In this document: positions 5,838 to 25,210 of the stretch, piece by piece | How positions within the stretch are numbered: the stretch's first letter is position 1 | How the letters are laid out: each line of letters begins with the position of its first letter | Source of the DNA: an uncultured Acidobacteriota bacterium | Lineage (GTDB): Bacteria; Acidobacteriota; UBA6911; RPQK01; JAPXNP01 | Reading direction: 5' to 3' | DNA length: 64,000 bases | NCBI GenBank assembly: GCA_963777605.1 | Contig: CAVZRV010000006.1 | Span: 32,001-96,000, forward strand | The notes under the pieces: model-generated | What the model saw: the letters and a program-made list of their open reading frames with translations, nothing else | Databases searched by the model: none | What the model was told of the DNA's origin: nothing | Position numbers and translations under genes: made by a program

Positions 5838-5857
5838 TGAGCGGAAGAGACGCTGAT

Positions 5858-7920: not shown

Positions 7921-7942
7921 AGCCGTCTCCGCGCGCCAGGGC

Positions 7943-7995
7943 TATTTAAAATTTGTGCTCGGGCGCACTGGCCACTCCGCCGTACGCTTTAAAAA
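7943..7995. promoter_or_regulatory. Divergent archaeal-type TATA boxes (TTTAAATA on minus, TTTAAAAA on plus)
   Basis: First T lies at -30 from ATG 7920 and -26 from ATG 8014; these are the only AT-rich patches in a very GC-rich context. Confidence 0.6.
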
Positions 7996-8013
7996 CAAGG
8001 CCTCCCCACGGCG

Positions 8014-8559: not shown

Positions 8560-8756
8560 ACCCCGACCGCGCAGCCGCCATCGACCGGTGGGCAGCCCAC
8601 GTACGCACCCATCCCGACTGGAAGCGCGAACACACCGCGTTCATCAACGCCCAGTTCGAGAAAGCAGCAGCATTCTACAAACGCCTCGCCGCAACCGAAG
8701 ACGGCCGGAAACGGCTCGCACGGCTCCGGAAGCACCGCGCGGGACAATCCTTATAG
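8532..8756 (+). CDS. Small helical partner protein (putative antitoxin)
   Basis: 74 aa (METTT...IDRWAAHVRTHPDWKREHTAFINAQF), overlapping the NTase 3' end. Confidence 0.6.
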   Translation: METTTHATLDPDRAAAIDRWAAHVRTHPDWKREHTAFINAQFEKAAAFYKRLAATEDGRKRLARLRKHRAGQSL

Positions 8757-8759
8757 GCC

Positions 8760-9290
8760 GTGGCACCAACACGGTTTACCTGCACAGCGTCCAGCGCGCC
8801 ACCGAAGAGGCGCTCGCCTGCGACCCCCACCACCCTCACGGACGAGAGGCTCACACTGGCCAGGCCTCGAACAAGTCCCGACCACGCATCACCTTCTCCT
8901 GAACCCGGCGCGGCAGGCCCCCAACGACCAGGAAGGACTGTCGGGAACGCCCAAGCCACGCACAAGGTGGACCGCGAGGAATGCCGTCTCGACGTCCGCC
9001 GAACGAACCCCCAGATGGCGGCAGCGATGGACAACGACATCGTCGCCCTCCTCGAGTACACCGACCGGCTCGCCGCCAGCACGCCGGAACAGCTCCGCCA
9101 GGCCGGCGTCCGGAACTGGACGCTCGACTACATCCACCAGACCCTCCACGGCGCACCCGCCGAGGACATCCTCCGCACAGTGCCCTCCCGGCCGCCGCCC
9201 ATCAGCTACACCGGCGGCCGCCCCCTCAGCGAGGACCCGAGCCCCGCAACGCCCCAAGAAGCCGGCTACCAACCGGGAGGCCACCACTAG
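8760..9290 (+). CDS. Hypothetical protein (start uncertain)
   Basis: The C-terminal half (MDNDIVALLEYTDRLAASTPEQLRQAGVRNWTLDYIHQTL) looks protein-like; the N-terminal half is doubtful. Confidence 0.35.
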   Translation: MAPTRFTCTASSAPPKRRSPATPTTLTDERLTLARPRTSPDHASPSPEPGAAGPQRPGRTVGNAQATHKVDREECRLDVRRTNPQMAAAMDNDIVALLEYTDRLAASTPEQLRQAGVRNWTLDYIHQTLHGAPAEDILRTVPSRPPPISYTGGRPLSEDPSPATPQEAGYQPGGHH

Positions 9291-9937
9291 GAAGCAAGCG
9301 GACACCCTCACGCCAGGAACACAGCCGAAGCAAGGAAAAAGCCGGATACGCGAGCAGCCGCATGCTCGGAATCCACCCCGAGCGCCACCGCCACGTACCA
9401 GCCGGCGACGTTCCCCCGCCCCCCGCGACCAAGGCCACCGGTCAAAGCAACCGAACGGCCACACCACCAAGCCGAAAGCCCCGACAAGCAGCCAGACGCG
9501 GCACGACGCCGAACCGAGTACCCAGCACGCGAGCAGCACGGCCACATCCACCGCGAACGCCACCCACCGGCGACAAGGCCGGCGCGCCCCACCCTGAACG
9601 CGTACTGCGCCGGCGGCAGCCCGCCTTCCGCGTTCGACGCCCGCGGAACGCGGCCAATACCACGGCCGACCGCCATCCCGGGACAACCACCCAAGGACGG
9701 CCGGAGCACGAACGCAGCCCCCCTTGCATCGCAAGCGCCCGGCCGACAAAGCCCGCGATCCCGGCGCTCACGAGGAAGGTCGACGCGCGAACAGGCAGCA
9801 GAAGGAACGCGCTGCGCACCGCGAATCCCTCCGAATCATAAAGATCCCGGAACCCTCGCCAGACCCACGTCGAGCCCTCGCGCCCAAGCACGCCGCCCGC
9901 GCGAAGACACGTAAGAACCGAAGAACTCGAGGAGCCG

Positions 9938-9967
9938 CCCCCCCCCCCCTCCCCCCCCCCCTCCCCC
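9938..9967 (+). repeat. Poly-C tract interrupted by single T residues
   Basis: About 30 nt of near-pure C, seen directly. Confidence 0.9.
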
Positions 9968-10410
9968 TAGCTCTCGCACGGCTCCCAGGTGTAGACGTTC
10001 AACGTCACGGGCTGGCCCAAATACCGGATGACCCGGGTGAACGAAACCAAGTCCTTCATACACCCGCCCGCCTCGACCGCAGAATCGCACCTTGGGCTTG
10101 TACACCTCGCCGCAGCACTGGACGTAATCCGTGCTGTTGTACGACCGCCACTCGCCCGGCGCCAACAAGATGCTGGAAAGTGGGAAAGCCGAAGTCAACG
10201 CTGAGATGGAACGATTACGGCTGGAACTTGGAAAAGTCAAAGAAGCTGCTTCCGCTGCATTCGCCCGGTCCGGAAAAGCCAATGAAATGGCCGGTCAACT
10301 CGGTCAGAAGTAGCAAGATTGGCTGCTTGGGGCCCGTCACCTCAGGAAGGAGTAACACGCCGAATCCTAGTGCGAACCCTTGCCTAAAATTTATGGACTC
10401 AATATCTCAT

Positions 10411-12490
10411 TCATCGTTCTTCTGTTGAGAGGAACAGCTTCCTCGCAGTGATAGCTTCAATTCTTTCCTGCAAAGTTGGGTAGGAGGGCAAGAGTAGATA
10501 AGGTTCGTAGTTGACCTTCAGTATAGACGACCAGGCAGACAACCACCATGCTCGCCCGCTTCCACTTGTCGGGTAGCCACCATCGGGGCGACCTTGGCTA
10601 TATAAGGCAGGCCCAAGTGAATATAGTGCCTCAATTAACGGATCCACGCTCTTCAGGTGCGAGCACGCAAACTCGTCGGCCCGTTGCTCCATTTCTGAAG
10701 TTTCAATTCCCAAAGCAAGAAATCCCCGTCCCAATCCTACGACAACTGAAAGAAGTGCCAGCCTTCGGACGGTAGACATGTCGTTTACGATATGCCCTAG
10801 TTCATGAAGGATAATTGCACGTAGGGCATTCCGACTCACGACTGTCTCATCAAGCAAAAGCTCACCAAGAACGATCCTCGACCGCCGCGACAGGAGGCTG
10901 CAAGGCTCTGAGTAAGCCACGGCACCGGAAGCTCGGTCAGAAATTTGGAATTCGATCAAACCGGTGAGACCTAGGTCCGCTACATCCGTTTGGACCATCT
11001 CCAAGAGTTGATGTTCGACCCTGTTGTTGCGGTCAAGCTTACGCCAACGCCGGCGTCTTCGATGTCCACTCCAAAGAACCAAGAGGCTCGGAGAATAATG
11101 GCCAAACAGTCCTGTGATTAATAGGATAACTACTGGGATGTCCACGCGCGGAGCAATTGAAAGCGCCCACGACCAGGGCTCAATCAGGACCCACGATGTG
11201 CCTATCTTCCACCATGCCATCCAGAAGCAGCAGATGACGACGACCAAGGTCACACTTTGAATCAAGGCAAATCCGGCCGCAAGATAGAGTTTGCAGCTAC
11301 TGAGAGTCGGCAATTTGGCCTGATCTTCCTTCAGCCTGGATGCGAGAATTTCGTAGCGGTACACGGTCGCGAGCTCCGACTGAACAATCAGGGCAAAGCC
11401 GATCAGGCTAAGCCCACATGCAACCCAACTTATTATCAGAAGTCCTTCGGCCGTCGGCCCAATCATCGAGCGTGGGAGTACATTTAAGGACTCGGCGCAC
11501 CGTTCTCGAAGGGTGGAGGACAAAAATGGATACCACCGTCCTTCACCCGAGGCCAGGAACGGAAATGGTTCCGTCCTGTAGGCCTCTTGCAAACATAGCG
11601 GATTCTCGACACACCCAGCATAATTGCCCGCGATCAGCCAGAAAGAAACGATTGCCAGAAACACGATCAGGACCGGCGCACTCCAACGCCGAGACCAAAG
11701 CAAAGACAGCGAGTACCGCAGATCGTGCCGCCGTCTCCCGGTATTCGTCAGTAAGCTCAAAGGGTCTGGTAAAAGCAGCAGCAACAAAAGCACGCCAAGT
11801 AATATTGGGAAATTGACCCAGCCTAAGACGAGCAGAAGCACCAAACCCTCCAAACCAACCACGAGAAATGTTCGCTGTGAACGCTTCGCTGAATCAGTCA
11901 GAAAGGCTTCAAGTTCAACCTCAAGGTCTGGGCCAAATGCTTGGCTCATTTGCTCGAGTGATATCGTCTCCCGCCGAAAGAGTGTGAGAATCACCGCCAC
12001 AGCACCAATCGACAATAGACGAGCCTAGTAGTCCTGCTATCAGAATTAGAGGACTGTCCGAGTGCGTCTGAAGTAGGATAGCCGCAATAGCCAGTGAAAA
12101 TGCAGTAAAGAAAACCGCGTAGATCCACCGATTCAAAGGCCTCTCGAGATGCCAATCGGTCGTACCATCGTCAGCACGCGTCGTGTGAAGAATAAGCCCA
12201 AGAGGCGAGAGCGCACCGGGCCGTCCCCCCGCAGCAAGATAACGAACGCACTGCCACAGGCAAGGGCAGAGACTTTCAACTCCCAAGGCGATCCCGGACC
12301 CTCCATGAGTAACGCCCCCACCTCTGAAGGCGGAAGCCGAATTCGTCCGAAGATCACGCTTCCCCCTTCACCAGCCTCTCAAACTCGTCGTAAATTCGAG
12401 TACTCTCAGAACGCCCCAAATTCCCCAGGCGGACCAATGCGTCGATTGTTCCTCGCCTCTGACTGGAAGGAAGCCGCAACAGTCCCTCAT
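10411..12490 (-). pseudogene. Multi-TM M48/M56 (HtpX/BlaR1-like) zinc metallopeptidase; N-terminal part frameshifted, 10411-12015 open
   Basis: RAIILHELGH (HExxH), EQRADEFA and SYPTLQERI motifs; upstream hydrophobic fragments in other frames. Confidence 0.7.
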
Positions 12491-12499
12491 CGGCGGTCC

Positions 12500-13005
12500 T
12501 GACCTCCCTTAAGCAACCGGCCGAGGATCAAGACCGACGCAGAAAGCGAGCGATTCGCGGTGACCGACGAAAACCCCAGCCCCTGCTGGAAGGCGAGTCC
12601 CGAATCTGGAGTCCAACTGTCCAAGAGACCTTGCCTCTAAAGCAGGCTCCACAACACCTCAAATTTACCCGGCATCGGCCGTGAAAAAGTGCTGTACAAC
12701 CTCGGTGAGGAGCCCCTTGCGCCGTTCCCAAGGATTCTCAGCTCTATGGCGATCCAACTTCAGCTCCCGCAGTGCGCCCTCGGCGGCTCTCTTCCGACTG
12801 CGTCAATTGCGGTGGGATCTTCATCGGCAATGCAGTCCGTCGACGCGCTTGAGCCGCTTGAAGGTTAAGGAACTCCTCCCAACAGCGCCGGCAGGTTTCG
12901 ACGTGAGCCAAGACGTTCCCGCATCTCTTCGGTCCCAAGTTCTTGCTCGACGAGCTTGGCCAACGTCTCGCTCGACGGGCAATGCGATCGGGTCCTCTCA
13001 GTCAT
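12500..13005 (-). pseudogene. Zinc-finger (zf-HC2) anti-sigma factor, frameshifted
   Basis: MTERTRSHCPSSETLAKLVEQELG then a frameshift to VLAHVETCRRCWEEF (HxxxCxxC); 3' end approximate. Confidence 0.65.
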
Positions 13006-13019
13006 CGAAACTCCCTCCA

Positions 13020-13633
13020 TGGTACGCACCCTTCTTGAGCTTCCTTACGGCATTATCATTGGCCACTCACACCCGTTCGTAGGTTGTACCCAACCTTTTC
13101 AGCAGTCTCCTCAAGAGTCCACCGAAGAATAGCCTCACACATATGATGAGCCGCTCCATCCGGTGAGGCAGATTCGGGTCAAGCAGCAGCGGAATCGATC
13201 AGCTTGCGCAAAGGATCACGGCCAGACGAAATTACATCCTCTTCAATCGATCATTGTCGACTCCAGCACTTCAATGATCCCCTCAAAGTTGATTCGGTCG
13301 GCCGTGCTCCGGTAGATGACCGTATCGTCGGCAACCGTGCCGGCACCAGAAACCTCAAGCCAAGATCGTCTGACCCCAGTTCGTAGAAGTCCGATTTGCC
13401 CGCCGCTTGAGAAATGTCACGGCTCGGTTAACCACAATCCTCTTCGCAAAATACAAGGTCAGTTCAGGATCTTGAATTCGATTGATTCCACGGTAGAGCC
13501 GAATCAGCGATTCCTGAACAATGTCTTCCGCGTCATCCGGATTATTCACAATCGCATATGCCCACCTCGCAAGCGGCTTGCTCAGTGCGCCGAAGACAAA
13601 ATTCCAAAGTCGACTCAGAGTCCTCTGCTTCAT
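13020..13633 (-). pseudogene. ECF sigma-70 factor; region 2 intact, region 4 disrupted
   Basis: WAYAIVNNPDDAEDIVQESLIRLY...RIVVNRAVTFLKRR is the ECF region 2; premature stop at 13355. Confidence 0.7.
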
Positions 13634-13859
13634 TTTGTAATCGCCGAACCGCCTCTCCCAGTGTCACACCGCCATTTAGCCACATTCAGCCTTTCTTGAT
13701 AAGCCCCAGAGTGCGACTTCAAAGGCATTTCGCAACTCGGTCTAACAACCAAAGACCCTGCAAAACCGACCTTGGCGTCCAATCTCCCGATGATTTCTCG
13801 CCCGCAATACTCCCGGTGGGTCCTCCAAGGCGAACTCTCACGAAAGGAGCAGACGCCCC

Positions 13860-14087
13860 ATGAAAGACTCAACCAAAATGCCCGAACCGGTCGCCAAGTT
13901 CGACGGAAGTGCCGCCGATTGTGCGTTCTACCGCCACAACCGGAAATCGCGGCGTCAACTGCCTCTTGACGGTGCCTCCTCTGAACGGCCGGGTCCTGAG
14001 GAACTGGAAAGAGCCCGTCAACGCCACCAGGAAAAGCAGCTCGACCGAGTCGCCGAGTTCGCAGTACAGGACGTTTTGGAACAGTAA
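13860..14087 (+). CDS. Small hypothetical protein
   Basis: AAGGAG upstream; first ORF of the plus-strand run. Confidence 0.4.
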   Translation: MKDSTKMPEPVAKFDGSAADCAFYRHNRKSRRQLPLDGASSERPGPEELERARQRHQEKQLDRVAEFAVQDVLEQ

Positions 14088-14102
14088 AGAAGGAGGTAGC
14101 AG

Positions 14103-14789
14103 ATGGACACCACTAGTCTCAATGGACTGGTCTGGGCGGACGATGATTTTCCCCAGCGGGTCCGCATTCTCATTCGCACCATCGAAATCATCATGCCGGC
14201 ACCGATCGGCGTCAAGCGATCCACTCTGTTCGGGGATGGCTTCCACTCGATCGGAGAGATCTTCGTGGAAGACGCGGTCAACCGCCTTGAGCGGCTGGGG
14301 TTCATTCGGGTAGTCACCAAGGGGCGGGCGACGCTTTACCGCCCGGTCCTCAATGAAGTGACTGAAATTGCGATGAGCTTACAGTTCCACTCTCAATTCA
14401 GGGCAGCCCAGGGTGAGAGGGCTGCCCTGAGGTCCTCCAATCTGACAAGGAGGTACAGAGTTGAATCACAACTGGTTTATTCAAGGGTTAGTGATCCTGA
14501 TCTTGTGCTGGTTCCTCCGGGATCGCGTTCCGTATATCGGCAGACTTCCCGGAGATTTCGACATTGTCTTCGGCAACGTCCGGTTGTTCCTGCCCATCAT
14601 GTCCGGGCTGCTGCTCAGCCTGGCCTGGTCCGTCATCCGGGGGATGCTCGATGGACGGTAAGAAGCTTGCGCCCTTGGCTGCATTTCTTTTGCTCGTTCC
14701 CCCGATCGATCGGGTTTTCAACCGATTCAACCGGGAGTTCTTCGAAGCGGTCGGGCAGGTTGCCGACCTGCTCGGGGAACACTCGGTGA
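14103..14789 (+). CDS. Winged-helix-like protein; probably only the first 95 aa or so are real, with the stop lost
   Basis: AGGAGGT SD; VEDAVNRLERLGFIRVVTKGRATLYR is a wHTH wing motif; the tail overlaps the DUF2905 gene. Confidence 0.5.
   Translation: MDTTSLNGLVWADDDFPQRVRILIRTIEIIMPAPIGVKRSTLFGDGFHSIGEIFVEDAVNRLERLGFIRVVTKGRATLYRPVLNEVTEIAMSLQFHSQFRAAQGERAALRSSNLTRRYRVESQLVYSRVSDPDLVLVPPGSRSVYRQTSRRFRHCLRQRPVVPAHHVRAAAQPGLVRHPGDARWTVRSLRPWLHFFCSFPRSIGFSTDSTGSSSKRSGRLPTCSGNTR
14398..14430. terminator. 12-bp perfect hairpin TCAGGGCAGCCC-N9-GGGCTGCCCTGA
   Basis: Seen directly; no U tract, so function is uncertain. Confidence 0.4.
14461..14661 (+). CDS. DUF2905-family small membrane protein
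   Basis: IGRLPGDFDIVFGNVRLFLPIMSGLLLSL signature; AGGAGGT SD before TTG. Confidence 0.8.
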   Translation: MNHNWFIQGLVILILCWFLRDRVPYIGRLPGDFDIVFGNVRLFLPIMSGLLLSLAWSVIRGMLDGR

Positions 14790-14860
14790 TCACCATTGGT
14801 CTCGTGGCCCTGCTTCTTGGCAGTGGTCCAGACACTAAGGAGGAACAAGATGCCCTTTAA
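14651..14860 (+). CDS. Small membrane protein (MDGKKLAPLAAFLLL...)
   Basis: Two hydrophobic segments; overlaps both neighbours. Confidence 0.5.
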   Translation: MDGKKLAPLAAFLLLVPPIDRVFNRFNREFFEAVGQVADLLGEHSVITIGLVALLLGSGPDTKEEQDAL

Positions 14861-15316
14861 CTTGTTCGACTCCCCCCGCCACTATTCTCCGACGGAGATT
14901 CTCAGCCAGCGCTTAGATCAGTGGGGCTACCCCAGCGGCAATAGCTACTGGTGGCGCCGCTATCCGGACCGGGCGGTCGAGGAACACAAATAAAGATGCT
15001 CAACAGCACCAATGCGGTTCCCGATTTCCAAGGAGACTCCTTGGTCTGGGTCGAGGAAATCGAAACCGATTTCGGGCTCAGTACCTATTGGCAGTCGTTC
15101 GGGCCCGTACTTCCCCTCGGATCGGCCGAAAGCGTTCGCGCCGGAAGTCGACTGCCACAAACACCGCAACTCCGACAAGTCCCTGTGCCTGGCCCACCCC
15201 TCTGAACTCGGCGCGGCACTACCGTCCTCGAGATTAGAAACATGGCGTGTGCATGGTTCTTCGCCTACGACGTGTACTCGAGAACCGGGGAATGGCCCGC
15301 TGCGGAGGCGGATTAG
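14850..15316 (+). pseudogene. Prokaryotic E2 (UBC-like) conjugating enzyme split by about 4 frameshifts
   Basis: AAGGAGG SD and ATG 14850. Stitched frames give WWRRYPDRAVEE / KMLNSTNA...LVWVEEIETDFG / QYLLAVV / PYFPSDRPKAF...HKHRNSDKSLCL / TTVLEIRNMACAWFFAYDVYSRTGEWPAAEAD*. Confidence 0.7.
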
Positions 15317-15325
15317 GAGGATCGG

Positions 15326-15580
15326 ATGCCTTTCAAATTTAGTCTCACTTTCTGGGCTGACCGGCCATTGATCATCACCATCACGGACGGTCAGAGATCG
15401 GTGAGGGTGGACTACTTCCCGGAACCGGAATACGAGTACTACGAAGATTACACGTACTTCCCGGAGACGACCCGCCCACTTACTTCTTTGAGGAAGAACC
15501 CGGACTCCTGCCGGCGCAACGCTACCGGCGAGGAAATCCACGAGAAGGGAGGTGAAAAGAAATGCCCGGTGTCAATCTGA
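15326..15580 (+). CDS. Small Tyr/Glu-rich hypothetical protein
   Basis: AGGAGG SD overlapping the E2 stop; PEPEYEYYEDYTYFPE tract. Confidence 0.5.
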   Translation: MPFKFSLTFWADRPLIITITDGQRSVRVDYFPEPEYEYYEDYTYFPETTRPLTSLRKNPDSCRRNATGEEIHEKGGEKKCPVSI

Positions 15581-15710
15581 ATGCCTTGCGAGACCGTTTA
15601 CAGTCACGGTCAAAAGTCGGAGTCAATAAGAACGGAACTCTGGAACGCGCGATCCGCAAAACGACGGCTCGAAGCAGGGTCCGACGACCCTGCAACCAGC
15701 CCGTTCTTGA
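15562..15710 (+). CDS. Short peptide, about 50 aa if one indel near 15650 is corrected (otherwise reads to 15777)
   Basis: Strong GGAGGTG SD; MPGVNLNALRDRLQSRSKVGVNKNGTLE, then the +2 frame gives DPQNDGSKQGPTTLQPARS*, followed by a hairpin. Confidence 0.5.
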
Positions 15711-15721
15711 GTGGCCGTTCG

Positions 15722-15750
15722 AAGCGGGGGACTCCCGATGGCCCCCGCTT
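15722..15750 (+). promoter_or_regulatory. 9-bp hairpin AAGCGGGGG...CCCCCGCTT between the peptide and JAB genes
   Basis: Seen directly; could be an mRNA stabiliser or partial terminator. Confidence 0.5.
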
Positions 15751-15773
15751 TCAGAAACCAGGAGTCGAAACTC

Positions 15774-16439
15774 ATGAGGAACTATCTCTTTAACCAATCA
15801 TCCGCATCGACCATGCTGGTTGAGTGCTTCCGGCGAGGTGACCAGCGAGAGGCGGGCGGTATCCTCGCCGAACGCGACGGTACGCGGGTGATTACCGACG
15901 CCGTGCCATCCACCGAACATGCCGAGCGCCAACGTTACACCTACTACCAGAGCCCGGAAGACGTCGCCTATCTGAACAACGTTCTCAGAAAGCTCGAGAC
16001 ACAAGGTCGAAGATTCTGCGGCTACTTCCATCGCCACCCCTCCGGTATGACCGGCTTGAGCCAGGGCGATCTGGACAGCTGTCGCCAGATCCTGAAGGAT
16101 CCGCACTATTTTCTGCCGGACGGGCTCTTGATGCTGATCATCACCGATTCGGAACGTTCCCGGATCCCGATTTTCCCGTACCTGGTCCGGCTCGAGGAGG
16201 ACCGTCCGGTGGTCGAACCCGTCACCATGACGATCCTTCCGGATGATCAGGTCGACACGATTCTTTCTTATCTCGAAGTGCCTCAGACAAACCGAAACAG
16301 CAAGGAGTTTTACGATGAAGAAGTGGTTCATTCTGGATCAGGCCCTCTCCGGCCAGTCTTCCGACCTGTACGTCCTGGAAACCGAGGACGGGCATATCAT
16401 CAGTTCGACGCCGCTCGACGCGAGCTTCAAGAAGGTTGA
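15774..16439 (+). CDS. JAB/MPN+ (Mov34) metalloprotease
   Basis: REAGGIL...GYFHRHPSGMTGLSQGD is the JAMM motif E...HxH..x..SxxD; AGGAG SD. Confidence 0.9.
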   Translation: MRNYLFNQSSASTMLVECFRRGDQREAGGILAERDGTRVITDAVPSTEHAERQRYTYYQSPEDVAYLNNVLRKLETQGRRFCGYFHRHPSGMTGLSQGDLDSCRQILKDPHYFLPDGLLMLIITDSERSRIPIFPYLVRLEEDRPVVEPVTMTILPDDQVDTILSYLEVPQTNRNSKEFYDEEVVHSGSGPLRPVFRPVRPGNRGRAYHQFDAARRELQEG

Positions 16440-17459
16440 GCAGGTCCGGGTCCCGTCCCAGACCGATTTTCAGGCTCGCAATGCCGGCCTCGTCGATCCC
16501 TCACGGCTCCAGGAGCATCGCATCCTGATCATCGGTGTCGGCAGCGGCGGTTCGAAGACCGCGACGAGCCTGGTGAGATCGGGGGCGATCAATCTGACAC
16601 TGGTCGATTTCGACCGGGTCGAAGTCTCCAACCTCTGTCGCTCGGAGTACGAACTGCCCGATGTCGGCGAGCTGAAGGTCGAGGCCTTGAAACGGCGCCT
16701 GTTGCGGATCAACCCGATGGCCCGGATCGAGGTCATCAGTAAGAACCTGCATGAGATGAGCCGCACTGAGGTCGAAGAGCTAATCGCGGGGCACGATCTC
16801 TGCTTTGAGTGCACCGACGATCCCAAGACCAAGCTGATCATCAACGCGGTCGCCTACGATCAGATCCCGGTGATCTACCCGGCCGTCTACGACGGGGGCA
16901 AGGGGGCGAGGTGCTCTACACCCTGCCCGGCATCACGCCCTGTTATCAGTGCATCATGGGCTCGATTCTTCCGCAGATGACCGAGGTCAAACGGGGGGAT
17001 TGGGACTATACGACCGGCACGCTGAAGCCGATGGCGGGGCTGAACTCCCACATCGACGTGGTGGTTGCGCGAAGTATCGATATCGCCCTGGCCATTCTGT
17101 CGGCAGGAACCGAGACGGATCGCTCGGACAAAGTCCTGGTGCCGGGTTCTTCCATTCTCTTTATCGGCAACGAGAGTGGGTTCTTCATTTTCGACGAGCC
17201 TTTCCAGGAGATCTGGGGGGAGACGGAAATCGACCCCGACTGTCCCTGTCAGCAAGCCCCCAGCCGGGAACCCGAGGGCAAACGCGATGAAGCGATCGAT
17301 GCCGAGGCTATCGCCTCGAGACCGGAAGATCCTCAACCTGTTGCGGCTGAGCCCGCACACGACGTCCCAGCTCGCCCGTCTCCTGTTTCCGAACCGGAAG
17401 AAGGCGAGTCAGCGGCTTCGGCAACTGACCGCGGCCGGCCACCTGAAACGGTTCAGTAG
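16315..17459 (+). CDS. E1-like ThiF/MoeB adenylyltransferase with one frameshift at the G run near 16900
   Basis: IIGVGSGGS, DFDRVEVSNLCR and KVEALKRRLLRINP; after the shift GEVLYTLPGITPCYQC...DPDCPC (Zn-binding Cys pairs). Confidence 0.85.
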
Positions 17460-18034
17460 CCCAATCGTCCACCCGACCGGCCGGCCCGAGTTCGTCTATA
17501 CGGGCCGGTCGGGTGCCGCGCAGCTATCACCTGATCCGACACGCACTTCAGGTGTCCGAGGTAACCGTGATCCTGCACGAATGGTTAGCTGAGAACCCGG
17601 AATTTACGGGCCGTCTCTACTGGCCGCAACAGGTCATACTGACGGGCGGGATCATTCCGGATGGGATCTTCACCGTGGCCCAAGGTGATCGGATGCTGCT
17701 CTTCCTGATCGAGGTGGATCGGGGCACGGAATCAAAGGCCGGTGCAGACTACAGCGTCCGTCGGAAGCTCATCGCCTATGGCGAATACTTCGATTCGGGA
17801 AGGTTTGCGGAGGATTACGCGATGCTCGGGACGTTCAACTCCTTTCGAGTGGTCTTCGTCTCTGTATCGGAATTGGCGTTGCCGGGGCTGCTCCGAATCG
17901 CCGCGGAAACCCAGACTGATTTCGTCTACTTCAAGCCAATGTCAAAGCTCACTCCCAAGACCTTTCCCGAGTCATGGGCTACGGCAAACCAGGATCGAGC
18001 GGACCTCTTTGGACGCACCGAGAGACAGACATGA
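17287..18034 (+). CDS. Replication-relaxation (Replic_Relax) family protein; frameshift near 17510
   Basis: RDRKILNLL...TTSQLARLLF...ASQRLRQL (wHTH), then IRHALQVSE, IIPDGIF and FLIEVDRGTE...KLIAY. Confidence 0.8.
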
Positions 18035-20313
18035 AAGACACCCGCCCCATCGAACTTGCCCGCCATGCTTTCGAAGGGCTCCTGCACCAGTCTCTGCTCG
18101 CGGAAGGCTCGAAGGGATGCGACGCGACTCTCCACTCCTACCCCGTCGATCTAGAGCCCCATTTCGGGCGCTTTGATCCGTCGCGCATACACGCTTCGAA
18201 GATAAGCCCCGGGATTCCGGAAGATCCGGTTCCCGAACGGGCCTGGTCGTCCTTTCGCCTCCGGCTTCCCCGTCAGTCGATCGCTCCCAATCAGGTCGTT
18301 GCCGCCATCGAGGCCTCGAGCATTCAAACGACCCGCTTCGCGTTCGAGATCGTCGCTGATGCCGGAAAGGCCGACGTGTATCTTGTGGCCGACGATCCCG
18401 AGTCCGCTTCCTTCATGCGGGATGCGTGGCTCAGTCACTGTCCGGGCGTGGTCCTGATTCCCTGGGAGGATCCCTGGAAAGACCTGTTGTCGGAGACTGA
18501 TCTCCGAGTTTGGGAAGCCTATCCCCTCCCCCTTACTCCCGACGGCTGGCCGTTCCCCGCTCGCCGAACTCTTCCCTTGCTTCTGCGCCAGGCGGCACGC
18601 CTTCGCGCGGGAGTCCGTTTGGTCTATCAGATTCTCTTTCAGTCGGTCCGCCACGACTGGCATCGAAACATCTACCTGCTGACGGCGGCCGAAACCACCG
18701 CCCAGGGTCGCATCCCCTGGCGGCATACCACACAAGCAGCGATCAAGCCGCCCGATCAGCCTCTGGTTGCTGCGATTCTCCGGATCGCACTCCTCGGAGG
18801 AGCCGACTCGCCGGCCGTCGATCCGGCACGCTACTGGGCGGGTTTCAGTCAAGGCGGCCGCCCCTTGCAGGTCAGAAGACCTGTCCAGTTCCGGGAGGTT
18901 CTCGACCAGCCTGCTCTCCTCTCGATGCTCTCCCGGCGGCGCACCCATGCACCAGGCGTCCTGCTGACGGCGGAAGAACTGTCGGCCTTCATTCAAGTGC
19001 CTGAGCAGGCAACCACGACACTCCGCATCGACTGGACCCGAGGGCTCGAAGTCCCCACGCGCTTTCAGGCTTCGGGGCGGCTTCTCGGGTTCAACTACTC
19101 GCACGCGGAACCCACGCCGGTTCGCCTGCCCGATACGGAACGAAACCGCAGCATCTATCAGATCGGCTCCTCCCGAAAAGGCAAGAGCAACTCGATCCTG
19201 CATCAATGTCTCGAGCTGGCGCGATCCGGCAGTGGGCTTGCCCTGATCGATCCGCATCGATCAACCGCCTTCGATCTGGTCCGTGCCCTTCCGCCCGAGG
19301 CTCTCGACCGAGTTGTGTGGTGCGACTTTCAAGACCCGGACTTTGTCCTGGACTATAACCCCTTCGATGCTCCCGACAGCTTCGGCCGCCGGGCTACGGA
19401 GTACGTCCACAGTTTCAAGCACCTCTTCGAGGCAGGCTCGTTTCACCGGATGGGTCGCATCCTGGGCTTGGGCGTCCATGCGCTGTTCGACCTCAAGGAG
19501 AATCTCGCCACCTTCTCGCGCCTCTTCGCCGCTACCGCAGAGGGCGAGCGCCTGCGGGCACGCGTCATCGCCCGATCCCAGAATCCCGATGTGCAACGCT
19601 TCTTCGCTGATGAGGTCCGATCGCTTCCCTCAGAAGCCATCACACCGATTCTTAATCGGATTTCGACGCTCTTGCTCGATGAGAGCGCGCGCCGCATTTT
19701 CGAGCGTCGAGAGAACAAGCTCGACATCCCCACCATTCTTCGCGAAGGACGGTTGTTGGTCGTCGCCCTGCCGTCGAATATCGATGTCGCCAACATTGTC
19801 GGGGGGATGCTTCTCGCCCAGATCCAAAAGGCAGGCCTTGCTCGCATCGGGCGTGATGAGCCCGATTTCTACGTCTTTCTCGACGAGTTTCATCGGTTCT
19901 TGAACTCGGCCAAGATCCTGGAGAGCCTCCTCAACGAATGTGCCAAGGCAGGCCTCTTTCTCTGCATGGCGCATCAGGAAACCGGCCAACTGAGTACCGA
20001 GCTCTTCCGAGCGGCCCTGACCGCTCCGCTCCTCATGGTCTTCGGCGTCAACTACGAAGATGCCCGCAAGTTCGTGCCGATCTTCAACGGTCGCATCCAG
20101 GTCGATGATCTCCTGTCGCTCCGGGTCGGAGAGGTCTGCGCCCGGCTCGATCAGGACATCGTGGATTTCCGTTGCCCTCCGCCACCAGCGGATCTCTCGG
20201 AAGAACGCGCCCGTCACGTGATTGAAGCAAGCCGGCGCCTCTACTACACACCGATCCATGAAATCGGGCGGTCCCGAAAGACCACTCAATCTCGACACTT
20301 GGACCATTTCTAA
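18031..20313 (+). CDS. VirD4/TraD-like type IV coupling ATPase
   Basis: Walker A GSSRKGKS, LALIDPH, Walker B FYVFLDEFHRF, AHQETGQL; ATGA overlap with the relaxase. Confidence 0.85.
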   Translation: MKDTRPIELARHAFEGLLHQSLLAEGSKGCDATLHSYPVDLEPHFGRFDPSRIHASKISPGIPEDPVPERAWSSFRLRLPRQSIAPNQVVAAIEASSIQTTRFAFEIVADAGKADVYLVADDPESASFMRDAWLSHCPGVVLIPWEDPWKDLLSETDLRVWEAYPLPLTPDGWPFPARRTLPLLLRQAARLRAGVRLVYQILFQSVRHDWHRNIYLLTAAETTAQGRIPWRHTTQAAIKPPDQPLVAAILRIALLGGADSPAVDPARYWAGFSQGGRPLQVRRPVQFREVLDQPALLSMLSRRRTHAPGVLLTAEELSAFIQVPEQATTTLRIDWTRGLEVPTRFQASGRLLGFNYSHAEPTPVRLPDTERNRSIYQIGSSRKGKSNSILHQCLELARSGSGLALIDPHRSTAFDLVRALPPEALDRVVWCDFQDPDFVLDYNPFDAPDSFGRRATEYVHSFKHLFEAGSFHRMGRILGLGVHALFDLKENLATFSRLFAATAEGERLRARVIARSQNPDVQRFFADEVRSLPSEAITPILNRISTLLLDESARRIFERRENKLDIPTILREGRLLVVALPSNIDVANIVGGMLLAQIQKAGLARIGRDEPDFYVFLDEFHRFLNSAKILESLLNECAKAGLFLCMAHQETGQLSTELFRAALTAPLLMVFGVNYEDARKFVPIFNGRIQVDDLLSLRVGEVCARLDQDIVDFRCPPPPADLSEERARHVIEASRRLYYTPIHEIGRSRKTTQSRHLDHF

Positions 20314-22341: not shown

Positions 22342-22587
22342 ATGAACACAAGCCACGAATTAGCCTCAATCTACGAACCGATCGCCGAGCTGCACTCAAC
22401 AGCAAGCGAATCAGAGGCCCCGCAGATTCGGACAGCCGGCGAAGACTCGCCAAGCTCGGATCATCGGTCCCACCAGTCCCGAAGGCAGACTGCCCCTGTC
22501 GATCCCAACCACTCCTTTGTGGAGGCCGTTGCCGTCGCCCTCATCCACGCGGGGATCTGGTGCTGGTTTGCCTGGTGCCTCTGGTAG
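22342..22587 (+). CDS. Small protein with C-terminal TM helix
   Basis: GGAGGTG SD; hydrophobic C-terminus. Confidence 0.45.
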   Translation: MNTSHELASIYEPIAELHSTASESEAPQIRTAGEDSPSSDHRSHQSRRQTAPVDPNHSFVEAVAVALIHAGIWCWFAWCLW

Positions 22588-22657
22588 GCGCTGCTCTCTC
22601 GATTGCCAGAAACCGGTCAACAGCCGCCCGGCGGCTTTCGGTGAAAGGAAGTACAAG

Positions 22658-23782
22658 ATGAGTGGACTCACAAAAACCCTGGAAAGAAATAACGGAAACG
22701 GCGACGGGGCTCCTGCTTCCGGGCAGCCCGGATTCGACGGTGGCGCTCAACTCGATGCCGTAGTGGACTCTGCCGTCCGACCGTCGGAAGACTTGCGGCG
22801 AATCGGCCTCGCCGATTTCCACCTCGTTCTGTACGCCTCAATGGGGCTCGAATTCGACTTCAGCAATCCACTCGAAGACCAGCTGCACGAACTCAGTAAC
22901 GCCGACCTGGGCATCCCGACTCCCATGTTGAATCCGACCAGCCAACGGCCATGGTCCTCGGGCAAAGAAGCCCCGTCGAAACGAAGGAGGGCATCGCTCC
23001 TCGTCTCGGCATTCAATTTAGGCGTGGCATCTTTCAGGTACCCCACGACTCACTACGAGATCGTACGCCGTCTTCTGGAACGGACCGACTACCGGGTAAT
23101 CCTCCGAACCAACGATGCGTCGATTGCAGACAAGGCGTGGCTGGACCTGTTGCTGGCCCATCGTGAGCGGACCACGGTCGGGCTGGTCATCCCGACTCTG
23201 AATGACGACGTCCTCGCAATCCTTGATCCAGACGGTTCGAGCCTGCCGGATCGCTTTCGGGCCTTCAAGTCGCTGCACCAGGCCGGAATTACAACGTGCG
23301 CTTTCCTCTGCCCTGTGCTCCCCGATATTGTGCCGCACCTCGACGCCGTCTTCCGAGAGATTCAGGTCGAACGACTCACGACGATCTGGGCGGCTCCATT
23401 TCACCAGAACTACTGGCAACGGATACAGAAAGCATTCGGCAAAGAATCACCCGAGCATTCCTGGTTCACAGCGGTCTTTAAGCACGGACACGATGAGCGC
23501 TGGAGTCGTTTCGCCGCCGATTTCTACCTGCGCCTCGCTCTCAAGGGCCGGGCCGAAGGGTGGTTCTCGAAAGTGCGGTTCCTCCTCGACGAACAACGGA
23601 TCCGCCCGCTCGATGCACTCCTCTTCGACCAGCTTGAGCGAGTCGTGTTGCTCGGCCCAACCGATGCAGACGGCTACAGCCAGAACCCAAGTATCCGCAG
23701 GCAGCAAGAGAAAGCCGCATTCTGGGACAAGAATGGGCTGGAAGTTCCAAAGGGAAACCCAAAATGGGCACGCCCCTCTTGA
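22658..23782 (+). CDS. SPL-like radical-SAM-fold protein lacking the CxxxCxxC motif
   Basis: VILRTN, VGLVIPTLND...LDPDGSSLPDRFRAFKSLHQAGITTCAFLCPVLP resemble the spore-photoproduct-lyase-like family; no Cys triad. Confidence 0.6.
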   Translation: MSGLTKTLERNNGNGDGAPASGQPGFDGGAQLDAVVDSAVRPSEDLRRIGLADFHLVLYASMGLEFDFSNPLEDQLHELSNADLGIPTPMLNPTSQRPWSSGKEAPSKRRRASLLVSAFNLGVASFRYPTTHYEIVRRLLERTDYRVILRTNDASIADKAWLDLLLAHRERTTVGLVIPTLNDDVLAILDPDGSSLPDRFRAFKSLHQAGITTCAFLCPVLPDIVPHLDAVFREIQVERLTTIWAAPFHQNYWQRIQKAFGKESPEHSWFTAVFKHGHDERWSRFAADFYLRLALKGRAEGWFSKVRFLLDEQRIRPLDALLFDQLERVVLLGPTDADGYSQNPSIRRQQEKAAFWDKNGLEVPKGNPKWARPS

Positions 23783-23898: not shown

Positions 23899-24216
23899 AT
23901 GTCCCCCGAGGAGGTTGCCCTGTTCCTCCGCAAGAGCTTGAGTTGGGTTTATAAGCACGCTGAGGAATTGGGCGCTGTGAAGCTCGGGGGTTCCTTGCTG
24001 TTCCCCAGCAAGGAGGACCTCTATGAGCGTTTATTCAACGAAAGGCAAGGGGTGGCGATACGACTTCAAGCTGAACGGCCGTCGCTACACCGGAGCCTGG
24101 TTCAAGACAAAGAGAAAGGCCACCGAGTCCGAAGAGGAAAGGAGGAAAGAAGTACTGAAACCCGAGGAGGTCGAAAGTCAGACCCCAACCGACATGGCCT
24201 TCTTGGAACTGGTTAA
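23899..24216 (+). CDS. Excisionase-like HTH protein
   Basis: MSPEEVALFLRKSLSWVYKHAEELGAVKLGGSLLF; overlaps the integrase 5' end. Confidence 0.7.
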   Translation: MSPEEVALFLRKSLSWVYKHAEELGAVKLGGSLLFPSKEDLYERLFNERQGVAIRLQAERPSLHRSLVQDKEKGHRVRRGKEERSTETRGGRKSDPNRHGLLGTG

Positions 24217-25120
24217 TCACCGCCTCGATTTTGTGCAGGCGTTCCGATCGGATCACTACTATCAGGACACCTGTTGCATGGCGAGACGTTGGGTTGTCGA
24301 ATGGGATGGCCGGCTGTGTGGTGAGTTTACCCAGGAAATGATCGAGAGTTTCTTGATGAAGCGTGCCAAGGTATCCCACTATGCGGCAAACATGGATCTG
24401 AAACTGCTCCGGGCGCTGTTCAACCATGGAATCAAGCGCCGGTTCATCCGTGGCAATCCGACGACCGGTGTCGAGTTCTTCCCGGTCGAGAAGCGAATCA
24501 AGTACGTCCCTCCCGCGGAAGATGTGCGGCGGTTGATCTGGAGCGCGGAAAAGGACGATCGCGATTATCTGATCGTGATTGCCGAAACGATGGCCCGGGT
24601 CGGAGAGGTGAACCGCCTGGTCTGGGACGATGTCGATTTCCGGGAACGAACGGTTGTCCTTTACACGCGGAAAAAGCGTGGAGGTCACCTGACGCCTCGC
24701 AAGGTCCCGATGACCGACCTGCTCTACCGAACCCTCCACCGTCGATTCGAACAGCGGGATCAGGCGAAGCCCTGGGTCTTCTGGCATCGCTACAAGGACA
24801 AGAAGAAGGGCGTCCTGGTGGAAGGACCATACCTGAGGCGAAAACGATTTCTCAAGAGCCTCTGTGAGAAGGTGGGCGTCCGCCCGATCGGCTTCCACGC
24901 CCTTCGCCACAGCGGGGCGTCGATACTCGAACACGCCAATGTCTCGATCAGTACGATTCAGCGCTTACTCGGTCACGAGAACCGCACCACGACCGAAATT
25001 TATCTCCACAGCCTGGGACAGCCGGAGCGGGAAGCCATCCGGATTTTCGAAGGTTTGAGAGAAAAGTCCCACACAGAGTCACACACAGAAGCGAACGATG
25101 CGCAGGAGCAATCTGCGTAA
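24023..25120 (+). CDS. int: Tyrosine recombinase / phage-type integrase
   Basis: ARVGE, HALRH, LLGH and TTEIY catalytic motifs; N-terminal arm-binding domain (KGWRYDF). Confidence 0.95.
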   Translation: MSVYSTKGKGWRYDFKLNGRRYTGAWFKTKRKATESEEERRKEVLKPEEVESQTPTDMAFLELVNHRLDFVQAFRSDHYYQDTCCMARRWVVEWDGRLCGEFTQEMIESFLMKRAKVSHYAANMDLKLLRALFNHGIKRRFIRGNPTTGVEFFPVEKRIKYVPPAEDVRRLIWSAEKDDRDYLIVIAETMARVGEVNRLVWDDVDFRERTVVLYTRKKRGGHLTPRKVPMTDLLYRTLHRRFEQRDQAKPWVFWHRYKDKKKGVLVEGPYLRRKRFLKSLCEKVGVRPIGFHALRHSGASILEHANVSISTIQRLLGHENRTTTEIYLHSLGQPEREAIRIFEGLREKSHTESHTEANDAQEQSA

Positions 25121-25134
25121 ACTATTGATTTTAT

Positions 25135-25210
25135 TGGTGGGTCGTGTTGGATTCGAACCAACGGCCCTCTGATTAAAAGTCAGATGCTCTGCCAACTGAG
25201 CTAACGACCC
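25135..25210 (-). tRNA. tRNA-Lys (UUU)
   Basis: GGGTCGTTAGCTCAGTTGGCAGAGCATCTGACTTTTAATCAGAGGGCCGTTGGTTCGAATCCAACACGACCCACCA: cloverleaf, TTT anticodon, encoded CCA. Confidence 0.97.

Follow-up and report, generated by a model that had tools for sequence, protein, structure and literature searches.

A candidate cassette of four genes, encoding an E2-like protein, a peptide of about 53 amino acids, a JAB/JAMM metalloprotease and a ThiF-type E1 adenylating enzyme, was found on the + strand at 14850..17459 of the window, the stretch of 64,000 nucleotides analysed here. The cassette, a relative of the Cap2/Cap3 accessory module of type II CBASS, probably conjugates the peptide; we estimate the probability of this reading at roughly 0.6. 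At slightly less than even odds, the peptide would be a new prokaryotic modifier: a free-standing mini-tag without a beta-grasp fold, derived from or mimicking the E2-recruiting motif and the E1-binding tail of a CBASS cyclase. The precursor of this tag would be trimmed; an E1 lacking the cysteine would then activate the tag, and an E2 of CBASS type would attach it to targets chosen by the mobile element that carries the cassette.

Composition of the cassette

The first-pass annotation of this region listed an E2, two short ORFs, a JAMM protease and a ThiF-type E1, all linked by Shine-Dalgarno sites. This set is confirmed by profile, Pfam and PADLOC matches, and GGAGG-like Shine-Dalgarno sites indeed lie 5' of the E2 gene, both short ORFs, the JAB gene and the E1 gene.

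The order E2, peptide of about 53 amino acids, JAB, E1 is conserved in an intact copy from another Acidobacteriota genome (G270) and in further loci. In the intact G270 locus, and in 10 of the 11 related loci, the peptide gene is flanked by E2 and JAB; the contig of the eleventh stops within E2. JAB followed by E1 was observed downstream in all seven loci with enough 3' sequence. Two of the loci, L008 and L017, are near-identical records. E2, the peptide, JAB and E1 are the only families common to all loci, and in every locus two genes stand between the ORFs of E2 (147-196 aa) and E1 (343-365 aa), which are not fused.

No CD-NTase family was reported among the 15, 19 and 43 ORFs scanned in the window and in G270, or among 52 flank ORFs of seven other loci. 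Likewise, no Ubl or beta-grasp family was reported in the scanned window ORFs or in the scanned flanks of the related loci. Thus the earlier observation that neither substrate is recognisable here holds, and none was reported in the flanks of the homologous loci that might have been lost from the window. PADLOC models of cyclic-nucleotide-activated effectors produce just weak partial matches overlapping the JAB region. Across the compared loci, the surroundings of the cassette have no effector, target, exporter or immunity gene in common, and so no neighbouring effector or target gene points to its function.

When a sample of 400 genomes of the phylum was scanned with JAB, one genome matched besides the window's own. 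The window JAB had no match in a genome-contig collection, nor did the E2 alignment in a viral-contig collection. With the cassette proteins, every NCBIfam model of a named system scores under its cut-off, so that by this measure the locus does not match a described system. A published description of an E2-peptide-JAB-E1 cassette was not found in the literature searched; the supplements of the CBASS and Bil papers might list such operons.

The E2 gene

The E2-like gene (14850..15315, + strand) belongs to the UBC-fold type of PF26395, named E2-CBASS in the Atlas, and is broken into four frame pieces by three frameshifts. It was confirmed with a profile of 13 intact relatives, compared with the window in all six frames, cut into 1800 stop-to-stop pieces. 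The profile matches exactly four consecutive pieces of the + strand, in profile order: 14790-14990 (profile positions 14-41, E 1.2e-5), 14945-15202 (44-72, E 5.3e-5), 14994-15368 (83-119, E 1.2e-3) and 15206-15313 (123-152, E 1.7e-14). Among all remaining pieces of the window, no score was better than E 3.8. The frames follow each other as 0, 2, 0 and 2, with shifts near 14985, 15095 and 15210. The first-pass annotation had proposed an E2 recoverable across about four indels, with its catalytic cysteine in SLCL; the E2 and the cysteine stand, and the four ordered matches reduce the frame changes to three.

The window E2 retains the histidine and the catalytic Cys of SLCL, and every conserved residue covered by the pieces is intact. 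In a UBC-fold E2 the catalytic Cys is expected behind the fourth strand, with a His a few residues before it; C115 and H107 are invariant in the alignment. PADLOC E2 models match the cassette E2 at E 3e-6, and one fragment of the window E2 at E 0.004. In precomputed annotation, PF26395 is present on all five of the E2 family matches. The AlphaFold2 model of the intact orthologue P0001 has a UBC fold (pLDDT 87.5), and in a Foldseek search of the PDB with the intact E2 the top 50 rows are all E2, UEV or UFC1 proteins, which speaks against the objection that the E2 might lack this fold. The best solved match is 8hsb_B, the E2 of a CdnG-E2 CBASS complex (E 4.7e-4, TM 0.56).

The JAB and E1 genes

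The JAB/JAMM metalloprotease gene (15774..16439, + strand) is Cap3-like and has an intact motif. The window JAB carries E-x-GG and HxHx7Sx2D, and the JAMM residues E, HxH, S and D do not vary across the aligned family, the window copy included. PADLOC JAB models match the window protein at E 7.4e-10 and the cassette JAB at E 3.5e-13. The 3' end of the gene overlaps the start of the E1 gene by 125 nt.

The ThiF-type E1 gene (16315..17459, + strand) encodes an N-terminal extra domain and a CxxC...CxC pattern, and a gap of one base at 16899 breaks it in two; with the intact G270 E1, tblastn finds it as two pieces. The window E1 matches Pfam ThiF at E 1.8e-30, in agreement with the earlier description of a ThiF/E1 with zinc-binding Cys pairs, and the PADLOC Cap2-type model PDLC00855 at E 1.7e-31. 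For the cassette E1 the Pfam ThiF match is above cut-off (E 1.9e-33), and among the PADLOC models a Cap2-type E1-E2 model fits best (E 1.2e-34). All NCBIfam equivalogs stay under their cut-offs.

The E1 alignment contains GxGxxG, CxxC and CxC, a single ThiF domain, and an N-terminal extension of 60-100 aa; it has the Gly-rich loop and zinc cysteines expected of ThiF/MoeB/E1 enzymes, whose adenylation domain is of Rossmann type. No crossover-loop cysteine was observed in it between CxxC and the following helix. The cysteine of an EPGC motif is present in all five aligned E1s that reach this position, and is replaced by Ser in the window. Against solved enzymes, the E1 profile scored E 1.4e-19 with MoeB, 1.1e-13 with PaaA, 2.4e-12 with Cap2 and 3.8e-12 with MccB; thus, judged by sequence, this E1 is no nearer to solved Cap2 than to MoeB, PaaA or MccB. 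Comparison of the N-terminal domain with the JAB family by hhalign yielded a probability of 0.7%.

The short ORFs and the candidate tag

Two short ORFs lie between E2 and JAB. The upstream one (15326..15580, + strand, 84 aa as assembled) is lineage-specific and not conserved in the other loci; the ORFs that take its place in L014 and L011 show no relation to it. The downstream one, 15562-15777 as assembled, holds the broken gene of the conserved peptide (15562..15710, + strand), preceded by a strong Shine-Dalgarno site, as are the peptide genes of the related loci. The peptide profile matches it in two pieces of the + strand, 15556-15774 (profile positions 3-27, E 1.1e-5) and 15630-15707 (28-50, E 8.7e-5). 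The frameshift near 15645 cuts the C-terminal motif short, leaving the end ...LQPARS; in contigs of relatives, the peptide end reads ...RFYE or ...SFYE. It is this second short ORF specifically that we consider the candidate tag.

The peptide has no Pfam family. Its family comprises 60 clusters at 90% identity, with 36 representatives among 1.84 billion proteins. The most conserved part is a C-terminal motif: [PT][KQ]RF occurs near the end of 59 of the 60 members and is always followed by 1-5 variable residues. The residue after RF is F in 42 cases, Y in 9, A or G in 3 each, and S in the other 2. The candidate mature end is either after RF or after RF and one further residue. A bulky Phe or Tyr is thus usually at or beside the presumed ligation site, which speaks against the peptide being a tag; the E1 substrates known to us end in Gly or Ala.

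Some members have unusual architectures. In 3 of the 36 representatives (P0068, P0073, P0077) the peptide is fused in frame with JAB, and the JAB domain was confirmed. P0092 is a tandem double peptide. In P0091, three repeats of the N-terminal half of the peptide precede an E2 domain, which the PADLOC E2 model matches at E 2.4e-9 despite an hhalign probability of 0.15% against the E2 family.

AlphaFold2 predicts a helix followed by three short strands and a tail, the best model having pLDDT 84 and the other four 67-71. In a Foldseek search of the PDB with the peptide model the best E was 0.26 and the CdnG chain was absent; the VIA wide search gave one row, HK97 portal, at Z 2.5. A profile search of PDB sequences gave only EF-hand loops of lanmodulin-like proteins at E 3.7 and 9.4, which we take as chance matches, and no CD-NTase was matched. 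Prediction of the complex of E1 (alignment of 7 rows) with the peptide (57 rows), made with no control runs, scored 0.02, a value that we count neither for nor against binding.

Frame breaks

At least six frame breaks were observed in the 14.85-17.6 kb region: three in E2, at least one in the peptide gene, one in E1 and one in the adjoining Replic_Relax family gene. A further one lies in the lineage-specific short ORF. The frameshifts in E1, the second short ORF and the Replic_Relax gene had not been seen in the first-pass annotation. Programmed frameshifting was rejected, because the orthologues are unbroken single open frames.

The indels were compared with contigs (not raw reads) of four public runs; the source sample is not clearly among them, and 14896-15143 is uncovered. 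In run X10, an extra C after 15465 turns the lineage-specific frame into a short ORF of 76 aa, which stops within the Shine-Dalgarno site that precedes the peptide gene. Runs X10, X1 and X3 have an extra A after 16899 in E1, and X10 and X3 have one base fewer at 17502 in Replic_Relax. Otherwise these contigs are 99-100% identical to the window over 100-325 nt, with 0-1 substitutions per piece in four pieces.

Since three of the indels are absent from near-identical contigs, the breaks are assembly errors or recent decay, and mis-assembly of the window copy is more likely than its recent inactivation. Alternatively, the cassette and the adjoining relaxase gene may be genuine pseudogenes of an integrated element in decay, and nothing would then function here. 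The clustering of at least six breaks, together with that in the short ORF, would agree with this, and so would the clean long ORFs over 18-64 kb, which show that the window assembly is not uniformly noisy, and a second att copy was not found within the window. We consider such a dead remnant rather unlikely, although its chances are appreciable: the frame is restored at 15465, 16899 and 17502 in near-identical contigs of other runs, and the ratio of indels to substitutions is higher than ordinary decay would leave. Moreover, the conserved residues of the E2 pieces and the JAMM motif are all intact, and the breaks lie at short homopolymers, as expected of an unpolished long-read consensus. In any case, decay would concern the window copy alone, as the family is intact elsewhere.

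Genomic context

A gene for a small membrane protein of the DUF2905 family (66 aa, 14461..14661, + strand, Pfam E 2.5e-11) lies upstream of the cassette. It is 67% identical to its G270 homologue by tblastn and is common to the window and G270 only; thus it is outside the conserved core. Downstream, the Replic_Relax family gene (17287..18034, + strand, Pfam E 1.8e-8, two tblastn pieces, frameshifted near 17502) is followed by an intact gene for a TraD/VirD4/HerA-like coupling ATPase of 779 aa (17974..20313, + strand), which has a weak match to TraG-D_C and a match to PADLOC mad8; its G270 homologue matches the VirD4-like model NF045973 at E 3.4e-5, under the cut-off. A tyrosine integrase gene (24023..25120, + strand, Pfam Phage_integrase E 5e-23) adjoins a tRNA-Lys gene found by ARAGORN (25135-25210, - strand). 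No second att copy of the 3' part of tRNA-Lys was found within the window. Other loci of the cassette contain toxin-antitoxin pairs, and the flank proteins of L009, L010, L014 and L016 had no tblastn match in the window. In our reading, the cassette is carried on small tRNA-Lys integrative elements.

Comparison with known systems

In type II CBASS, according to the preprint 10.1101/2022.03.31.486616, Cap2 binds and adenylates the disordered tail of the CD-NTase, which in the E. cloacae crystal ends in ...GRFA, and the E1 cysteine of Cap2 is dispensable in vitro, as the E2 cysteine can substitute for it. The cassette resembles this system in having an E2 of PF26395, a JAB of Cap3 type, and an E1 whose best PADLOC model is of Cap2 type, with a match reaching into the linker region. 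The RF-x tail of the peptide is similar to the ...GRFA tail of E. cloacae CdnD given there, and both systems reside on mobile DNA. On the other hand, the scanned flanks contain no reported CD-NTase or effector, Cap2 is an E2-linker-E1 fusion whereas E2 and E1 are split in the cassette, the presumed substrate is a free 53-aa peptide instead of the CD-NTase C-terminus, and the E1 crossover-loop cysteine was not seen. The earlier placement as a conjugation system is supported; the E2-CBASS Pfam family and the CD-NTase-like tail of the peptide set it closer to type II CBASS than had been implied.

In E2-only CBASS, a C-terminal motif of the CD-NTase, 47 residues forming a helix and a three-stranded sheet, recruits E2 (PMC12948482). 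The E2 of this system from Serratia marcescens (CdnG-E2, PDB 8HSB/8YJY; PMC12948482) is the best solved match of the cassette E2. The predicted structure of the peptide appears similar to the CdnG motif, as described in the same text, in size and order of elements; this likeness is one of secondary-structure order alone, since the peptide matches no solved fold. The system differs, in the same account, in having no E1 and JAB, and in that the motif lies within a 46-kDa cyclase ending in Gly.

BilABCD (family 6d of Iyer et al.) also has the Ubl, E2, JAB and E1 roles on separate genes; its JAB both processes and deconjugates, as we propose here, and Bil is an antiviral mobile cassette (PMC10557695 and PMC1779556). 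However, its Ubl has a beta-grasp fold and its E1 is large, combining inactive and active adenylation domains with a Cys domain that is mobile (PMC10557695), whereas the cassette E1 is a single ThiF unit of 343-365 aa and the peptide has no significant ubiquitin match. The Bil E2 lacks the classical His (PMC1779556), which the cassette E2 retains. Bub (family 6e) is described in PMC11601596 as a peptidase-E1 fusion with no JAB, 1-3 beta-grasp Ubl domains and the serine protease BubE; in contrast, the cassette has a separate JAB, and neither a polyUbl nor a serine protease is common to the loci.

The 6A-MBL system is an E2-E1-JAB triple fusion with a metallo-beta-lactamase, and no such lactamase was found in the cassette flanks. 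Its model NF058523 gives 61.6 bits with the E1 and 16.2 bits with the JAB, against a cut-off of 320. The PRTRC cassette consists of a ThiF family protein, ParB and proteins A-F; its ThiF model TIGR03736 gives 25.2 bits against a cut-off of 144.75, and other PRTRC models have no match. Pup of Actinobacteria, like the proposed tag, is a small peptide without a beta-grasp fold, about 60 aa long and serving as a protein tag, but it is ligated by a glutamine-synthetase-like ligase via a side-chain carboxylate and not by E1/E2.

Proposed mechanism and alternatives

The earlier suggestion of a distinct conjugation system, with a non-ubiquitin peptide tag and on a mobile element, agrees with the comparative evidence; we infer every biochemical step, including conjugation itself, as well as which protein is the tag and what biological role it has, as follows. 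The first product would be a precursor of the peptide, with [PT][KQ]RF and 1-5 variable residues at its end. The tail would be trimmed by JAB, which in some relatives would cut the peptide off its own N-terminus. The exposed C-terminal carboxylate would be adenylated by the ThiF-type E1, and the peptide would then move to the conserved cysteine of E2, probably straight from the adenylate, since the E1 crossover loop has no Cys. Attachment to lysines of targets would follow, and JAB could reverse it. Most likely the cassette would act in defence, against phages or rival elements, or in controlling its own element.

Other roles of the peptide and the enzymes were considered. One possibility is that the peptide is a regulator, adaptor or inhibitor, for example an E2-binding decoy, and that E1 and E2 conjugate the C-terminus of another protein, either a host protein of ThiS/MoaD type or one of the element. 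The usual C-terminal Phe or Tyr, atypical of an E1 substrate, fits this, as does P0091, where the N-terminal half of the peptide, devoid of the tail, precedes an E2 domain as if binding it; an endogenous ThiS/MoaD protein was proposed for Ubl-less cassettes by Iyer et al. 2006 (PMC1779556). Still, we regard this role as unlikely: a conserved C-terminal motif followed by a variable, dispensable tail is what one expects of a modifier that is processed, in the peptide-JAB fusions the motif sits exactly at the expected protease cut, the tail is like the Cap2-bound tail of CD-NTase, and there is no other conserved partner gene.

A RiPP-like pathway, in which the E1 homologue modifies the peptide C-terminus in the style of MccB-MccA or PaaA-PaaP and JAB acts as a leader or tail peptidase, so that a small bioactive product results, seems improbable. 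PaaA (E 1.1e-13) and MccB (E 3.8e-12) do match the E1 profile with scores similar to that of Cap2, a short peptide of ribosomal origin is the substrate, and the cassette E1 has an N-terminal extra domain of 60-100 aa, the position at which MccB has its peptide-binding domain. However, a UBC-fold E2 with invariant His and Cys, which would be roleless in such a pathway, is present in every locus, JAB and E2 are of CBASS type, and no exporter or immunity gene is conserved. The least probable role, for which we see hardly any chance, is counter-defence: a JAB of the Cap3 kind, together with a decoy tail peptide that E1/E2 would charge, would interfere with a host type II CBASS by competing for its CD-NTase conjugates or stripping them. 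The location on mobile elements and the CD-NTase-like tail are compatible with it, and over-expressed Cap3 antagonises CBASS (10.1101/2022.03.31.486616). Yet a decoy needs neither E2 nor E1, no precedent was found, and a query of the rest of the genome with E1, the sole CBASS component sought, gave just a 32%-identical ThiF gene on contig 7.

Implications

Conjugation of the peptide by the cassette thus remains our preferred reading. In the characterised systems of E1/E2 tagging that the papers cited here describe, it is a beta-grasp protein that is moved (Bil, Bub), or a whole cyclase by its tail (CBASS). If our reading is true, a dedicated 53-residue peptide with the same enzymes would constitute a minimal form of ubiquitin-like tagging, and the E1/E2/DUB machinery could work without any ubiquitin fold. 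The cassette would then be a plausible intermediate between tagging by enzyme tails and a dedicated small modifier, which bears on the origin of dedicated modifiers from enzyme tails. The system should be easy to reconstitute, as it has just four small genes and its peptide is accessible to synthesis. Finally, the constant place of the cassette on small integrative elements of sediment and soil bacteria suggests an unexplored route by which mobile elements may defend or regulate themselves.

Conservation of the cassette

The cassette, consisting of genes for an E2, a peptide of about 53 amino acids, a JAB (a Cap3-like JAMM protease) and a ThiF-type E1, was found intact in another genome of the same class as the window genome, an uncultured Acidobacteriota MAG (G270), which is its closest cassette-bearing relative. 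The gene order is the same and all cassette genes are open, encoding an E2 of 159 aa, a 53-aa ORF, a JAB of 240 aa and an E1 of 343 aa. Downstream are genes for a Replic_Relax protein, an ATPase (in two pieces), a 206-aa protein, an HTH_17 protein and an integrase.

Scans with patterns taken from the E2 alignment yielded nine metagenome loci and two more genome loci, labelled as Desulfobacterium sp. and Patescibacteria group MAGs. The 53-aa ORF lies immediately 3' of the E2 gene in 10 of the 11 loci (tblastn), the remaining contig ending within the E2. All seven loci of sufficient extent continue with JAB and then E1. The number of independent loci is one lower, since two of them, L008 and L017, are near-identical. 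In all-against-all clustering, E2, peptide, JAB and E1 are the only families common to all loci. The flanking genes vary, including HerA/FtsK-like ATPases, MazE-PIN and ParE pairs, an excisionase-like HTH protein, integrases, an M48 peptidase and ECF sigma factors. No conserved effector was observed beside the cassette among the loci compared. No ORF in the scanned flanks was assigned to a CD-NTase or ThiS/MoaD/ubiquitin family, and the original observation that neither substrate is recognisable holds in the window and in these flanks.

The copy in the window

The window copy (14850-17459, plus strand) is broken or mis-assembled. Its E2 gene, which the ORF track had missed, is real. A profile of 13 intact relatives, searched against the window in all six frames (1800 pieces), matches four consecutive pieces in profile order (E 1.2e-5, 5.3e-5, 1.2e-3 and 1.7e-14), and no other piece scores better than E 3.8. 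The pieces lie in frames 0, 2, 0 and 2, giving three shifts near 14985, 15095 and 15210; thus the first-pass annotation was right about the frame breaks and wrong about their number, which it had put at about four. The conserved residues WW..YP.RA, TNA, His, IRN.ACAW and WPAAE are kept across the pieces, and so is SLCL, proposed to hold the catalytic cysteine.

Both short ORFs reported after the E2 exist, and each is affected by indels. The second, at 15562-15777, is the peptide gene. The first, at 15326-15580, is lineage-specific and, with the additional C seen in public sequencing run X10, would encode 76 aa; close relatives have it in their contigs, but loci L014 and L011 have unrelated short ORFs in its place and the other loci lack it. 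The JAMM protease was identified correctly, the motif E..HxHx7Sx2D being intact in the JAB gene (15774-16439). The E1 gene (16315-17459) has the CxxC and CxC pairs described for it, together with a frameshift at 16899 that had escaped notice. Ribosome-binding sites of the GGAGG type precede all five genes, as claimed.

In most loci the JAB frame extends 125-190 nt into the E1 gene (window 16315-16439; 7281-7468 in L005, the G270 locus; also L008, L009, L010 and L016). The overlapping JAB tail is not conserved, whereas the N-terminal domain of the E1 is. This domain (60-100 aa) faintly resembles a degenerate JAB, but the hhalign probability is 0.7%.

The frame breaks may reflect assembly error or decay. 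Contigs of four public runs were compared with window positions 14400-18100, of which 14896-15143, within the E2, is covered by none. At 16899, every contig piece that spans the site (runs X10, X1 and X3) contains one A more than the window; at 17502, X10 and X3 are one base shorter; and after 15465 a C is inserted in X10. Each of these changes restores the frame of the intact orthologues. The break sites are short homopolymers, and the pieces with these changes show 0-1 substitutions per 100-325 nt, or 9 per 769 nt, relative to the window. With indels this frequent relative to substitutions, a locally unpolished consensus is favoured, such as strain-variable mobile DNA may leave in assemblies of long reads, and judging from the sites that the runs cover we consider it the probable cause (about 65-70%). 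True decay of the cassette is the unlikelier explanation, though one to be taken seriously. Between 18 and 64 kb the ORFs of the window are clean, the longest reaching 1301 aa, and the damage has the look of poor consensus or decay in one local patch, restricted to a part of the mobile element. In a comparison of 12000-17600 with 18000-64000, all frame breaks found were inside approximately 14.85-17.6 kb. An ECF sigma factor fragment at 13355-13633 on the minus strand contains region 2 only.

The mobile element

A single integrated mobile element occupies the plus strand between 14.4 and 25.2 kb, in a source genome of 6.7 Mb in 53 contigs. Its first gene, ahead of the cassette, encodes a DUF2905 membrane protein (14461-14661). 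The cassette is followed by genes for a Replic_Relax protein (split near 17502), a 779-aa TraD/VirD4/HerA-like ATPase, a conserved 202-aa protein, a primase-like protein, a radical-SAM-like protein (22517-23782; a weak match below the cut-off, E 7.8e-5) and a tyrosine integrase (24023-25120) abutting tRNA-Lys(UUU) (25135-25210, minus strand). The left end has no defined boundary, because no further copy of the 3' part of the tRNA was found anywhere in the 64-kb window. The cassette accounts for about a quarter of the small tRNA-integrated elements concerned, which fall under at least three phylum-level labels.

Two elements, that of the window and L008 (2978-4231), encode radical-SAM proteins, the one in L008 also having a SPASM domain. 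The TraD-like ATPase, a single ORF in the window, is represented in G270 by two overlapping ORFs of 309 and 480 aa (L005 3121-5399); the broken genes of the shared element thus differ between the two genomes. Elsewhere in the window, region 4001-10000 is strongly skewed in base composition (GC skew to -0.43, AT skew to +0.54; GC 0.70 at 9-10 kb), and its ORFs read as low-complexity, without family assignment except for a sub-threshold DUF5719 match of a 713-aa ORF (E 1.2e-5).

The peptide family

The peptide forms 60 clusters at 90% identity among 5.8 billion proteins, and 36 representatives among 1.84 billion. No cluster among the 60 is assigned to a Pfam family, and in the few cases where a source supplies a name it is 'hypothetical'. 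The peptides are 48-75 aa long (median 54), with VDLNK near the start, a GV.RDG turn, a DP.NDG motif, a variable stretch and TTL.P[KQ]RF near the end. The motif [PT][KQ]RF is followed by 1-5 more residues in 59 of 60 members, 14 of which end one residue past RF; the residue after RF is F in 42, Y in nine, A in three, G in three and S in two. Ubiquitin-type modifiers show this same layout, being made as a conserved motif with a disposable tail.

In three of the 36 representatives the peptide is fused in frame to a JAB, with linkers of 4-25 residues and confirmed JAB domains. Protein P0092 (123 aa) is a tandem double peptide with KPTRWF ending each copy, reminiscent of polyubiquitin precursors. 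P0091 (352 aa) contains the N-terminal half of the peptide three times, followed by a domain called E2 by PADLOC (E 2.4e-9). The AF2 model of the peptide has a helix (5-13), three short strands and a tail (best pLDDT 84, the other four 67-71); structure searches found no solved fold matching it. The DP.NDG motif (profile positions 25-40) bears a non-significant resemblance (E 3.7) to the metal-binding EF-hand loops of lanmodulin-type proteins.

E2 and E1

The model of an intact E2 is confident (pLDDT 87.5), and its PDB neighbours, among the matches listed, are all UBC-fold proteins, which bears out the fold proposed for the window gene. The best is 8hsb_B, the E2 of the Serratia CdnG-E2 complex (E 4.7e-4, TM 0.56), followed by Ube2W, SCE1, UbcH7 and UFC1. 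In a profile search of PDB sequences the core YP..P.vF...H....G.lCL aligns with eukaryotic E2s (E about 0.01). The family carries Pfam PF26395 (Atlas name E2-CBASS) and is small, as a word-based search finds only five clusters. Contigs of the four public runs with 95-100% flank identity stop at the E2 gene (at 14818 and about 15220-15250), and what is encoded in their loose ends resembles a diverged E2. Compared with the surrounding genes, the E2 seems to vary far more between close strains, which would suit a fast-evolving, target-recognising component.

The best PADLOC model for the E1 is the Cap2-type 'E1-E2' (E 1.2e-34), which in the window protein also matches the region ahead of the adenylation domain. 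All NCBIfam models, including ThiF, MoeB, 6A-MBL cap2_3 and PRTRC ThiF, are far below their cut-offs for the cassette proteins. No aligned E1 has a cysteine in the crossover region, from CxxC to the next helix, which makes direct transfer from adenylate to the E2 cysteine the simplest route. Indeed, a preprint on Cap2 reports that its E1 cysteine is dispensable in vitro and that the E2 cysteine can substitute (10.1101/2022.03.31.486616).

Comparison with known systems and possible function

In its proposed mode of working the cassette is closest to Cap2/Cap3. The same preprint describes Cap2 as binding only the last residues of its CD-NTase, and the E. cloacae tail in its crystal structures ends in ...GRFA (10.1101/2022.03.31.486616), to be compared with ...P[KQ]RF[FYAGS] of the cassette peptide. 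In E2-only CBASS, whose E2 is nearest to the cassette E2 among solved structures, the last 47 residues of CdnG are described as a helix and a three-stranded sheet that recruit the E2 (PMC12948482). Given these two published cases, we infer from size, element order and motif that the peptide resembles a detached cyclase tail; sequence and fold searches gave no confirmation.

On the other hand, the cassette differs from type II CBASS in having no cyclase, no effector and no E2-E1 fusion, and from Bil in having no beta-grasp match, a small E1 and an E2 with the classical His. Compared with the features of Bub, 6A-MBL and PRTRC, it fits none of them. In the literature searched, we found no description of an E2-peptide-JAB-E1 cassette. 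The conserved four-gene set, with no Ubl or CD-NTase recognised in the scanned flanks and matching none of the systems compared, supports the initial interpretation as a distinct conjugation system with a non-ubiquitin peptide tag.

Judging from family membership and gene architecture, the most likely working is as follows. The JAB would trim the precursor peptide, and the E1 would adenylate the product and hand it to the E2 cysteine, from which it would be joined to lysines of target proteins; the JAB may reverse the mark as well. Such a system could mark proteins of phages or rival elements, as Bil does, or could control the relaxase or ATPase of the element itself.
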